Positions 2,491-5,983 of a stretch of 64,000 nucleotides of DNA are shown piece after piece; position 1 is the stretch's first letter, and each line of letters opens with the position of its first letter. Location of the stretch: the sequence record OR757453.1. One strand, given 5' to 3'. The DNA is from Escherichia phage BYEP01. The position numbers were made by a program, and so were the translations under genes. Under the pieces are notes generated by a model, which was given only the letters and a program-made list of their open reading frames with translations, had not been told where the DNA came from and ran no database searches.

Positions 2491-2530
2491 AATAAATACC
2501 CTTATCTATTTAAGGTAAGGGTTTATTATG
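2491..2530 (+). promoter_or_regulatory. stem-loop overlapping ribosome-binding region of gene 49
   Basis: accctta (2498-2504) pairs with taagggt (2516-2522); ATG of gene 49 at 2528. Confidence 0.4.
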
Positions 2531-3001
2531 TTATTGACTGGCAAATTATATAAAGAAGAAAAACAGAAATTTTATGATGCACAAAATGGTAAATGCTTAA
2601 TTTGCCAACGAGAACTAAATCCTGATGTTCAAGCTAATCACCTTGACCATGACCATGAATTAAATGGACCAAAAGCAGGAAAGGTACGTGGATTGCTCTG
2701 TAATCTCTGTAATGCAGCAGAAGGTCAAATGAAGCATAAATTCAATCGTTCTGGCTTAAAGGGACAAGGTGTTGATTATCTTGAATGGTTAGAAAATTTA
2801 CTTACTTATTTAAAATCCGATTACACCCAAAATAATATTCACCCTAACTTTGTTGGAGATAAATCAAAGGAATTTTCTCGTTTAGGAAAAGAGGAAATGA
2901 TGGCTGAGATGCTTCAAAGAGGATTTGAATATAATGAATCTGACACTAAAACACAATTAATAGCTTCATTTAAGAAGCAGCTTAGAAAGAGTTTAAAATG
3001 A
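2528..3001 (+). CDS. 49: endonuclease VII (Holliday junction resolvase), 157 aa
   Basis: Protein MLLTGKLYKEEKQKFYDAQNGKCLICQ... recognised as T4 gp49; zinc-binding Cys cluster; length 157 aa. Confidence 0.9.
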   Translation: MLLTGKLYKEEKQKFYDAQNGKCLICQRELNPDVQANHLDHDHELNGPKAGKVRGLLCNLCNAAEGQMKHKFNRSGLKGQGVDYLEWLENLLTYLKSDYTQNNIHPNFVGDKSKEFSRLGKEEMMAEMLQRGFEYNESDTKTQLIASFKKQLRKSLK

Positions 3002-3535
3002 CGATTGAAAAAGAAATTGAAGGATTAATTCATAAAACTAATAAAGACCTTTTAAACGAGAATGCTAATAAAGATTCTCGTGTTTTTCCAACTCAACGGG
3101 ACCTTATGGCTGGTATTGTGTCTAAACATATTGCCAAAAATATGGTCCCGTCTTTTATTATGAAAGCGCATGAAAGCGGAATTATTCACGTGCACGATAT
3201 TGATTATTCCCCTGCTCTTCCATTTACTAATTGCTGTTTAGTAGATTTAAAAGGAATGCTTGAGAATGGATTTAAGCTCGGTAATGCACAGATTGAAACT
3301 CCTAAATCAATCGGTGTTGCTACTGCAATTATGGCACAAATTACTGCGCAGGTTGCTTCTCATCAATATGGCGGAACGACTTTTGCGAATGTAGATAAAG
3401 TACTTTCTCCTTATGTTAAACGCACCTATGCAAAACATATTGAGGACGCAGAAAAATGGCAAATCGCTGACGCGTTGAATTATGCCCAATCTAAAACAGA
3501 AAAAGACGTATACGATGCATTCCAAGCTTATGAGT
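2998..3535 (+). CDS. nrdD: anaerobic ribonucleotide reductase NrdD, exon 1
   Basis: ORF aligns to N-terminal third of class III RNR; ORF ends in stop 3541-3543 inside intron; 5' splice site after U3535 inferred from P1 pairing. Confidence 0.85.
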
Positions 3536-3868
3536 TAATTTAATTCAGGCTCATGTAAAACCGGTCTAAACGGGGAACCTCTCTAGTAGACAATCCCGTG
3601 CTAAATGTTCTTTTGAACTAAATGCCTAACGACTAACCGTGATGAATGTAGCGGTGTAGAATAGAAGCTAATGCTATTCGAAACGGCCGGCATCGAAAGA
3701 TGAAGATATAGTCTAATCTGCATGGCGACATGCAGCAGTCATCTTGTATAAATAAGATTATCTTATGAATACGAGGTGAAACAATGAAATGGATAAAAGA
3801 CGTTGCATATCTATGGACTATCCAAATTTTGTTGTTTCATATAAACGGGCATGAATTTGCGTCTCATG
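3536..3868 (+). ncRNA. group I self-splicing intron in nrdD, no homing endonuclease ORF (about 333 nt)
   Basis: P1: exon atgagt (3530-3535) pairs with intron gctcat (3549-3554) with U.G at splice site; P10: ttcag (3544-3548) pairs with exon-2 start ctgaa (3869-3873); conserved P (cggggaa), Q (aatcccgtgc), R (acgactaa) and S (aagatatagtc) elements; P9 hairpin ctgcatggcgacatgcag; omega-G at 3868. Confidence 0.75.
3747..3754 (+). promoter_or_regulatory. late-promoter consensus TATAAATA inside the nrdD intron
   Basis: Exact TATAAATA; followed by SD gaggtg and in-frame ATG at 3784. Confidence 0.4.
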
Positions 3869-5160
3869 CTGAATATAATGATGAAGTAAATACACTTTTC
3901 AGCTCTAATGGACAAACGCCTTTTGTAACAATTACGTTTGGTACGGGAACCGACTGGACTGAACGAATGATTCAGAAAGCAATTCTTAAAAACCGCATTA
4001 AAGGCCTTGGTCGTGATGGGATAACTCCTATTTTCCCTAAGCTTGTTATGTTCGTTGAAGAGGGTGTTAATCTTTATAAAGACGATCCGAACTATGATAT
4101 TAAGCAGCTTGCTTTAGAGTGCGCAAGCAAAAGGATGTATCCTGATATTATTTCAGCTAAGAACAATAAAGCTATCACGGGTTCATCTATTCCTGTTTCT
4201 CCAATGGGTTGTCGTAGTTTCTTGGGCGTATGGAAAGATTCCACTGGTAATGAAATTCTTGATGGACGTAATAATCTTGGCGTTGTAACACTGAATCTTC
4301 CTCGTATTGCGTTAGATTCTTATATTGGAACACAGTTCAATGAACAGAAATTTGCCGAATTGTTCAATGAACGAATGGATTTATGTTTTGAAGCTTTGAT
4401 GTGTAGAATTAGTTCCTTAAAAGGAGTTAAAGCGACTGTTGCTCCTATTCTTTATCAAGAAGGTGCATTCGGGGTTCGTCTTAAACCTGATGACGATATA
4501 ATTGAGTTATTTAAAAACGGTAGAAGTTCAGTGTCCCTAGGATACATTGGTATTCACGAATTGAATATTCTTGTCGGTCGTGATATTGGACAAGAAATTT
4601 TAACTAAAATGAATGCTCGTCTTAAGCAGTGGACTGAAAGAACCGGTTTTGCTTTTAGTTTGTATTCTACTCCTGCTGAAAACCTGTGCTATCGCTTCTG
4701 TAAACTTGATACCGAAAAATATGGAAGTGTAAAAGATGTTACCGATAAAGGCTGGTACACTAACAGTTTCCACGTTTCAGTAGAAGAAAATATTACTCCG
4801 TTTGAAAAGATTTCTCGCGAAGCCCCGTATCATTTCATTGCGACAGGTGGTCACATTTCTTATGTTGAACTTCCTGATATGAAAAATAACTTAAAAGGCC
4901 TTGAGGCCATATGGGATTATGCTGCACAACATTTAGATTATTTTGGTGTTAACATGCCGGTAGATAAATGTTTTACATGCGGAAGTACCCATGAAATGAC
5001 TCCTACTGAAAACGGATTTGTTTGTTCTATTTGTGGAGAAACTGATCCTAAAAAGATGAACACAATAAGAAGAACATGCGGATATCTTGGAACTCCTAGC
5101 GTTGTTCCATGGAATTTAGGTAAAATGAAAGAAATGGTAAAACGAGTAAAACATGCATAG
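3869..5160 (+). CDS. nrdD: anaerobic ribonucleotide reductase NrdD, exon 2 (glycyl-radical domain)
   Basis: Contains C-terminal Cys cluster CFTCG...CSICG and glycyl radical motif RRTCGYLG; frame continuous with exon 1 after splicing (…AYE-S-EYNDEV…); total about 609 aa. Confidence 0.85.
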
Positions 5161-5983
5161 GTATTATATAATTTATAAAATAACAAATATAATTAATTCA
5201 AAGGAATATATCGGTGCGCATAGCACCGATAACATAAATGACGGTTATATGGGGTCAGGAACATTGATTCGTGCCGCTTTATTAAAATATGGTAGAAAAA
5301 ATTTTAATAAAGAAATTTTACATGTTTTTGATAATGAAAAACAAATGTATGATAAAGAAGCTGAACTTGTAACCGAAGAGTATTGTCTAAAAGAAAATAC
5401 ATATAATATTAAACCTGGTGGAAAAGGTGGAACTGCCTATGAACAGACACTTGAACATCGCCGCAAAAATAGTTTAGCAAATAAAGGTAAAAAGAGAACA
5501 GAAGAAACTAAAATAGCTATTTCACGTGCTTTAAAGAAATATAAACGTACGCCAGCGCATCAAGCAAATTTAAATAAAGCCGTAAGCATAGCTATGAAGC
5601 GAAAAGATGTTAGAAGTAAATTAGCTGGAGAGCGGTCTGAGAAAGATAAATTATCTATATCAAACGGTGTTAAAAAATATTACAATTCTTTGAGTGAAGA
5701 AGAACGCGAACTTCATCGCAAGCGAATTATTGAAGGTAAAAAGAATTCTCCCATGTCATTGGAATCTAGACAAAAGCTTTCAAAAGCTTTAAAAGGACTT
5801 CAAGTTGGTTCAAAAAATCCAATGTATGGAAAAATTTCTCCAACTAGCAAAACCGTTTCAGTTGACGGTATTAAATATGATTCAATTAAAAAGTGCTCAA
5901 ATGCCATAAAAGTTTCTAGACATCTTATACTAAAACGCTGTAATTCTACTGATGAAGCTTGGAAAAATTGGATATTATTATGA
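5153..5983 (+). CDS. freestanding GIY-YIG homing endonuclease (276 aa)
   Basis: N-terminal YYIIYKITN...YIGAHS (GIY-YIG) motif, basic NUMOD-like middle, C-terminal HTH-like tail; start overlaps nrdD stop, stop overlaps nrdG start. Confidence 0.8.
   Translation: MHRYYIIYKITNIINSKEYIGAHSTDNINDGYMGSGTLIRAALLKYGRKNFNKEILHVFDNEKQMYDKEAELVTEEYCLKENTYNIKPGGKGGTAYEQTLEHRRKNSLANKGKKRTEETKIAISRALKKYKRTPAHQANLNKAVSIAMKRKDVRSKLAGERSEKDKLSISNGVKKYYNSLSEEERELHRKRIIEGKKNSPMSLESRQKLSKALKGLQVGSKNPMYGKISPTSKTVSVDGIKYDSIKKCSNAIKVSRHLILKRCNSTDEAWKNWILL

Follow-up and report, generated by a model that had tools for sequence, protein, structure and literature searches.

The interruption of nrdD near the start of a 64,000-nt stretch of Escherichia phage BYEP01 DNA (OR757453.1; hereafter the window) is, judged from its sequence, a group I intron that has lost its homing endonuclease gene. 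We put at about 85% the probability that this is the mobile, sunY-type group I intron that T4-like phages carry in nrdD, now late in the life cycle of its homing endonuclease, and that it arrived there by the steps proposed below. Loss of the endonuclease is an ordinary stage of selfish-gene decay; the promoter and start codon that stayed behind are remnants. The start of the window corresponds to the nrdC-49-nrdD-nrdG region of Tequatrovirus (T4-like phage), and the closest 12-kb records match it at 96–98% identity, none of them being identical.

The nrdD gene is divided between two ORFs, one (2998-3543) matching positions 1-141 of the Pfam NRDD profile and the other (3784-5160) matching positions 145-562 as well as the Gly_radical domain. 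A single group I intron lies between them. A covariance-model search matched Rfam RF00028 at 3500-3735 with 72 bits (E = 2.7e-16) against a gathering score of 50 bits, and the cmscan alignment spans positions 1-253 of the 253-position model. The above-threshold score and the full P1-P9 core together identify the interruption as a group I intron, as the original prediction had proposed.

The 5′ splice site falls at 3535/3536, where exon AUGAGU (3530-3535) pairs with guide GCUCAU (3549-3554) and U3535·G3549 forms part of P1. This site, also predicted, is upheld by the P1 pairing and by alignment with the intronless nrdD of KIT06, which encodes 605 aa and reads ...AYEYEVNTLF... At the other end, we place the 3′ splice site between G3880, the omega-G, and A3881: linking 3535 with 3881 yields a 605-aa NrdD (AYE-Y-EVNTLF), and no other junction restores the intronless form. 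The predicted ligated exons read ...GCTTATGAGT/ATGAAGTAAAT, and the spliced product agrees with KIT06 at 603 of 606 positions and with spliced T4 NrdD at 589 of 606 (stop counted). The annotated T4 join gives an intron of 1033 nt, in line with the expectation of a T4 nrdD intron of about 1 kb that encodes I-TevII; it ends ...ACACATTG/ATGAAG, and the homologous site in the window reads ...ATATAATG/ATGAAG. The intron had been expected to end at 3868 with a length of 333 nt, which is off by 12 nt, the KIT06/T4 junction giving 3536-3880 and 345 nt. A 4-bp P10 (UUCA/UGAA) is available at the authentic 3′ site. We infer that the 345-nt intron would be splice-competent at 3535/3881, with guanosine-dependent self-splicing as the putative mechanism.

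Features of the nrdD locus in the window, with the evidence on which each assignment is based.
Feature	Position	Strand	Basis and remarks
Endonuclease VII (gp49)	2528-3001		
nrdD exon 1	2998..3535	+	NrdD residues 1-179 and codon 180 base 1; ORF list, Pfam NRDD, alignment to intronless KIT06 nrdD
Group I intron, 345 nt	3536..3880	+	RF00028; boundaries from intronless and T4 alleles; ORF-less derivative of the JB75-type intron
Catalytic core P1 to P9	3536..3735	+	cmscan; internal guide GCUCAU 3549-3554; P9 hairpin 3718-3735
SD hairpin	3739..3779	+	3739-3749 pairs with 3769-3779; -17.8 kcal/mol, z = -4.2
TATAAATA, T4-type late promoter box	3747..3754	+	Exact; conserved in JB75 and T4; predicted start ~3760
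SD GAGGTG (3773-3778) and ATG (3784-3786) of the former I-TevII-like gene	3773..3786	+	Identical to the JB75 start, near-identical to T4 I-TevII
ORF-loop-closing stem	3776..3840	+	5′ arm 3776-3795 with 3′ arm 3819-3840; folds; -18.3 kcal/mol, z = -3.1
Fusion ORF, 458 aa	3784..5160	+	MKWIK, 27 frameshifted residues, D, NrdD 181-605; ORF list and three-frame translation
Deletion junction	3800..3805	+	6-nt microhomology ACGTTG, ORF codons 6-8 vs 239-241; alignment
3′ remnant of the endonuclease ORF (...CISMDYPNFVVSYKRA, then stop)	3806..3854	+	Original stop TGA 3852-3854; now read in another frame
3′-terminal hairpin	3848..3870	+	Folds of window and T4; GCAUGA 3849-3854 / UCAUGC 3864-3869; contains G3868
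nrdD exon 2	3881..5160	+	Last two bases of codon 180, residues 181-605, stop; splice-junction comparison and Pfam
Free-standing homing endonuclease, 276 aa	5153-5983		phrog_314, E = 1.4e-59; NUMOD3; between nrdD and nrdG

A megablast search with 3436-3968 returned 46 phage records that cover the query in two pieces each, spanning ~1233 bp, and the gap between the pieces is annotated in those records as 'homing endonuclease'. By alignment, JB75 (MH355584) carries the same intron at a length of 1045 nt with a 771-nt ORF, whose 256-aa product is 56% identical to I-TevII and matches SegE_GIY-YIG and NUMOD1. The JB75-type intron is full-length in 44 Tequatrovirus records (1044–1047 nt, 99.3–100% mutual identity), and the nearest genome relatives over 12 kb (N2 and SP21535) have the full-length form. 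Outside the deletion, the retained window intron is 98–99% identical to the JB75 intron: just two aligned intron positions differ, one of them at the deletion junction, and the flanking exons agree over about 50 nt to either side. Compared with JB75, 700 nt are absent (699 compared with the A4 allele of F27 described below), and codons 6 to about 238 of 256 are gone. What is left of the endonuclease gene in the window is its first 5 codons and its last 18, the latter out of frame. Without an intact GIY-YIG ORF, the window intron is, by sequence comparison, no longer a mobile intron of the I-TevII type. The original prediction of an intron lacking a homing endonuclease ORF is thus borne out, and its suggestion of a deletion scar of an endonuclease gene is strongly supported by the 44 full-length relatives with a 771-nt I-TevII-like ORF.

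The junction itself points to how the gene was lost. JB75 reads ATG AAA TGG ATA AAA AGA CGT TGT ACT... on the 5′ side and ...ACT ATA AAA GAA CGT TGC ATA TCT... near the end of the ORF, and the window reads ATGAAATGGATAAAAGACGTTGCATATC across the deletion, one A fewer than a simple crossover of the JB75 repeats would give. F27 (OP870146) has a full-length 1044-nt intron with an A5-to-A4 slip at codon 5 (ATGGATAAAAGACGTTGTACT, locus positions 454-470), which shortens the endonuclease ORF to 10 codons. Its A4 allele, ATGGATAAAAGACGTTG, is identical to the 5′ side of the window junction, and the window sequence results exactly from a crossover at ACGTTG in a parent like F27. The most economical order of events would be the A5-to-A4 frameshift first and the microhomology deletion afterwards. 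Further split-ORF alleles are found at 1046 nt (236Ecol005PP, F1 and FN) and at 1047 nt (FL23 and FL44); together with F27, these alleles indicate that frameshift inactivation is frequent in the I-TevII-like gene. The sole other large deletion, in 215Ecol030PP (PP328843), removed 566 nt at AAGAC, a 5-nt microhomology, leaving a 479-nt intron (1601-2079 of the extracted locus). The exact window junction (ATGAAATGGATAAAAGACGTTGCATATCTATGG, together with its A4-or-A5 version) was absent from 50,697 phage records and from viral, metagenome and genome contig collections. Decay of this kind is to be expected of a homing endonuclease gene that finds its target sites already occupied, and Sandegren and Sjoberg reportedly described, in 2004, several deleted endonuclease genes in T-even introns.

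Only two lineages of the nrdD intron were found, the T4 type and the JB75 type. The T4 type is present in 25 records at 97–100% coverage, 24 of them full-length (1031–1033 nt, the U5 intron having 1031 nt) and one T4 record having 1001 nt; none of these 25 carries a large-deletion allele. With 345 nt, the window intron is the shortest among ~70 intron-bearing phage records, the others matching over 1001–1047 nt save one of 479 nt. By blastn over intron positions 1-270 it is 99.6% identical to its JB75-type relatives and 98.9% identical to 215Ecol030PP; against the T4 intron the identity is 81.6% for the megablast part aligned with exon 1 and 73.3% by blastn of the intron alone. The window, T4, JB75 and 215Ecol030PP have the same insertion site and are homologous over the core and the 3′-terminal domain (alignment, with intron coordinates in six loci), and by this comparison the window intron belongs to the T-even nrdD (sunY) lineage. 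Scanning viral contigs with the conserved 3′ motif TTGTTTCATATAAACGGG brought no further lineages for covariation: apart from four unrelated loci, the one hit was an intron of the T4 type.

Part of the core has a composition of its own. Over 42 nt (3565-3606, P3′-P4-P5-P6) the window matches the td intron found in T4-like phages at 100% identity, and the T4 nrdD intron differs from this stretch at 9 positions. This stretch looks like a td-to-nrdD gene-conversion patch common to the whole JB75-type lineage, and it recalls the intron domain shuffling that Bryk and Belfort are said to have described in 1990.

Annotation of the locus in related GenBank records bears little trace of the intron. Most records give nrdD as two separate ORFs with no intron or join, the second of them beginning at an internal ATG that lies within the 3′-terminal part of the endonuclease gene. 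A rho-independent terminator annotated in SA20RB at the equivalent of 3718-3735 was rejected as such, the hairpin being P9 of the intron. The boundaries given here supply the correct nrdD join for the window phage and for ~45 related genomes.

Within the 3′ part of the intron, the exact TATAAATA box, the SD gaggtg and the ATG at 3784 are all in the sequence as predicted. The record of phage SA20RB lists the box as a late promoter. Exact copies are not enriched in the 64-kb window (5 versus 11 expected from shuffles), and the intron copy is the sole one within ~30 kb downstream, a scarcity that fits a region of mostly early and middle genes; its weight as a putative promoter comes from its conservation with T4 and JB75 and not from statistics. 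The box lies in the 5′ arm and loop of the SD hairpin, so that a late transcript would be without the 5′ arm. The hairpin has a T4 counterpart of -15.5 kcal/mol (z = -4.0), and control of an intron endonuclease RBS by a hairpin and a late promoter is a principle described earlier (PMC2988022). The window has the sequence layout of this arrangement: the box at 3747-3754 and a hairpin with z = -4.2 and a T4 analogue.

A second stem overlaps these signals. The 5′ arm of the ORF-loop-closing stem runs from the GUG of the SD through the spacer and the AUG into codons 2-4, and its 3′ arm was once the 3′ end of the ORF. T4 and JB75 fold into the same stem when the interior of the ORF is taken out, T4/JB75 identity is 0.8–0.9 in the arms versus ~0.6 inside the ORF, and T4/JB75 likeness is highest exactly in the segments retained by the window. 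Both natural deletions, that of the window and that of 215Ecol030PP, keep both arms. In ORF-containing introns the stem is modelled to close the ~770-nt ORF loop and to return the 3′ splice site to the core, a role for which the support is mostly conservation and three one-sided changes and not strong covariation (two lineages). The 3′-terminal hairpin reads GUAGAG/CUCUAC in T4, with 4 of 6 pairs changed on both sides; these compensatory pairs were read by eye, the MAFFT alignment of the 3′ domain misplacing a gap inside the hairpin.

On the strength of their match to JB75 and T4, the promoter, SD and ATG are the lost endonuclease's own late-expression signals. They were probably kept because they are part of the intron RNA stems, and the ATG region appears to have been retained as RNA structure and not as a translation start. 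The segments that survived the deletion in vivo are the core, the SD hairpin, both ORF-closing arms and the 3′ hairpin.

The ATG at 3784 is nevertheless open into exon 2, as predicted, giving an ORF of 458 aa. Instead of the 28 intron-derived residues originally proposed, this fusion has 32 intron codons and the junction codon GAT (3880-3882) ahead of NrdD 181-605, with the TGA at 3852-3854 out of frame; because the 12-nt shift of the 3′ boundary amounts to four whole codons, the frame into exon 2 holds at the corrected junction too. Stops close all but one of the three reading frames over the retained 3′ piece, so read-through is an approximately 1-in-3 outcome of a random deletion. Read-through into exon 2 was found in none of the relatives: the ORF ends after 10 aa in F27, after 18 in 215Ecol030PP, and in the intact alleles at their own TGA. 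The fusion covers positions 145-562 of the 562-position NRDD profile and lacks 1-144, and so is not a complete NRDD. As had been reasoned, a late transcript from ~3760 could not be spliced, because it is without the 5′ splice site and the core.

Translation of the fusion is predicted to be impeded. The cost of opening the SD-AUG region is 15.4 kcal/mol in the window pre-mRNA and ~12.5 kcal/mol in modelled late transcripts of the window, as compared with 1.8 (JB75) and 2.1 kcal/mol (T4) in the first 160 nt of the late transcript, in a model that is thermodynamic only and ignores ribosome and helicase kinetics. The ORF-closing arms are only 23 nt apart in the window, and folding therefore predicts a local 20-bp hairpin that would bury the start site. 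The late 'on' switch is thus predicted to be largely lost, the RBS being closed in the modelled late transcript. A barrier of ~12 kcal/mol would lower initiation but need not abolish it. Most likely, the fusion is a weakly expressed, functionless by-product.

Beyond nrdD lies a free-standing homing endonuclease gene (5153-5983) that begins at an ATG overlapping the nrdD stop (ATGCATAG). What occupies this position differs between phages: mobC in T4 and in 215Ecol030PP, the window's own gene again in the intronless KIT06, and nothing in JB75. The window gene is probably the segH of Sandegren et al. 2005 (title as cited in PMC2988022). By analogy with mobE, which co-converts the T4 nrdB intron (PMC2790892), this endonuclease could co-convert the nearby ORF-less nrdD intron.

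Four other explanations of the locus deserve consideration, two of which concern the intron itself. It would be very unlikely for the intron to end at G3868, with exon 2 beginning at 3869. The choice of 3868/3869 in the original prediction probably arose because a real 6-bp complementarity, AUUCAG (3543-3548)/CUGAAU (3869-3874), exists there and outdoes the 4-bp authentic P10. Yet the junction 3535/3869 would produce AYE-SEYND-EVNTLF, an NrdD of 609 aa (610 codons with the stop) with four extra residues, and the SEYND insertion is missing from both the intronless and the T4 NrdD. G3868 is moreover base-paired in the hairpin that covaries with T4, and the equivalent position in T4 is an A, so no omega-G exists there. 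G3868 with CUGAAU is a potential cryptic 3′ splice site that is present in the JB75 lineage and not in T4, and it is probably masked by the 3′-terminal hairpin. That the intron was ORF-less ancestrally, the 1045-nt relatives having gained their endonuclease by later insertion, strikes us as scarcely credible. Invasion by a free-standing endonuclease is a proposed route to mobile introns ('collaborative homing'; PMC2988022), but the window retains near-identical ORF ends (5 + 18 codons) with the gene's own stop out of frame, its junction sits at a microhomology within coding sequence, the A4 frameshift precursor is full-length in F27, and the T4 intron, 73–82% identical, has an ORF at the same place.

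The other two concern the allele and its product. As a singleton, the deletion might be suspected of being an artefact of assembly or laboratory passage, and nrdD and the intron endonuclease are dispensable in aerobic culture, so that a splicing-impaired allele could persist in laboratory stocks. Such an origin is highly improbable all the same: the junction is clean, at a 6-nt microhomology, all RNA stems are intact, a similar deletion arose independently in 215Ecol030PP, and a 6-nt repeat is too short to make an assembly collapse. A functional cassette is also improbable, if somewhat less so. Here, a late transcript from TATAAATA would be translated from ATG 3784 into a truncated NrdD (181-605 with a 33-residue leader) bearing the glycyl radical, or would deliver ribosomes to the endonuclease start at 5153; the truncated protein would serve, for example, as a dominant-negative NrdD partner or as a decoy for the activase NrdG, and the phage would have gained a regulated late product from intron debris. 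In its favour, the sequence holds a promoter box, an SD, an ATG and an open frame of 458 codons, the transcript from ~3760 is unspliceable, the fusion keeps the glycyl-radical domain, and the downstream endonuclease ATG overlaps the nrdD stop. Against this, the allele is unique among all the phage records and contig collections searched, the read-through is a 1-in-3 chance result shared by no relative, NRDD positions 1-144 are missing, the predicted fold buries the start site, and in KIT06 the downstream endonuclease is arranged in the same way with no intron promoter there. Late production of a truncated NrdD, as had been suggested, is therefore possible but unsupported.

Taken together, we favour endonuclease decay in an nrdD intron and propose the following history. 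The ancestor would have been a 1045-nt JB75-type intron encoding a GIY-YIG endonuclease 56% identical to I-TevII. A 1-nt slip in the A5 run of codon 5, the state seen in F27, was presumably suffered first or else acquired later, and a 699/700-nt deletion between two copies of ACGTTG would have removed codons 6 to about 238. This would have left the RNA needed for splicing, namely the P1-P9 core, the SD hairpin, both ORF-closing arms, the 3′-terminal hairpin and omega-G. Excision at 3535/3881 from early and middle nrdD pre-mRNA would then give the normal 605-aa NrdD. The late promoter, SD and ATG would be inherited signals of the lost gene; a late transcript from ~3760 could in principle encode the 458-aa fusion, with its start site predicted to be closed. 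One lineage thus documents the steps of endonuclease decay: the intact gene, the frameshift and the microhomology deletion. The window intron is a new allele of a well-known element, and knowledge of intron and endonuclease biology is unchanged by it.

Among known systems, the closest relative is the JB75-type intron (MH355584, N2, SP21535; 44 records), with near-identity over everything retained; the window differs in being without the 700 nt and in having the A4 allele at codon 5. The T4 nrdD (sunY)/I-TevII intron shares the insertion site, the exon context GAGT/...G/ATGAAG, the core, the SD and ATG sequence, TATAAATA within the RBS-sequestering hairpin, the ORF-closing stem and the 3′-terminal hairpin. 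Unlike the window intron, which has 345 nt and no endonuclease, it has 1033 nt with an endonuclease, and the window intron has in addition the 42-nt td-identical segment and a 10-nt insertion that forms an inner hairpin near the promoter. I-TevIII of the T4 nrdB intron is a defunct, internally deleted endonuclease (PMC2988022, PMC1865063). There too, a phage group I intron has kept its splicing RNA and its endonuclease expression signals after a large deletion, although the gene, the intron and the endonuclease family (HNH) are different, and the truncated T4 I-TevIII ORF stops inside the intron while the remnant ORF of the window reads into exon 2. The nrdD intron of 215Ecol030PP is of the same lineage and has likewise lost its endonuclease gene by an independent microhomology deletion with both ORF-closing arms kept, but there the deletion is of 566 nt, the intron of 479 nt, and the remnant ORF stops after 18 codons. 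Finally, engineered ORF-deleted sunY mini-introns or mini-ribozymes (Xu and Shub in 1989, Doudna and Szostak in 1989, Michel and colleagues in 1992) reportedly self-splice or are catalytically active in vitro and likewise combine the core with the 3′-terminal domain without the ORF. Those are laboratory constructs based on T4, whereas the window intron, a nearly complete ORF-less nrdD intron, is their natural counterpart in a sister-lineage allele.
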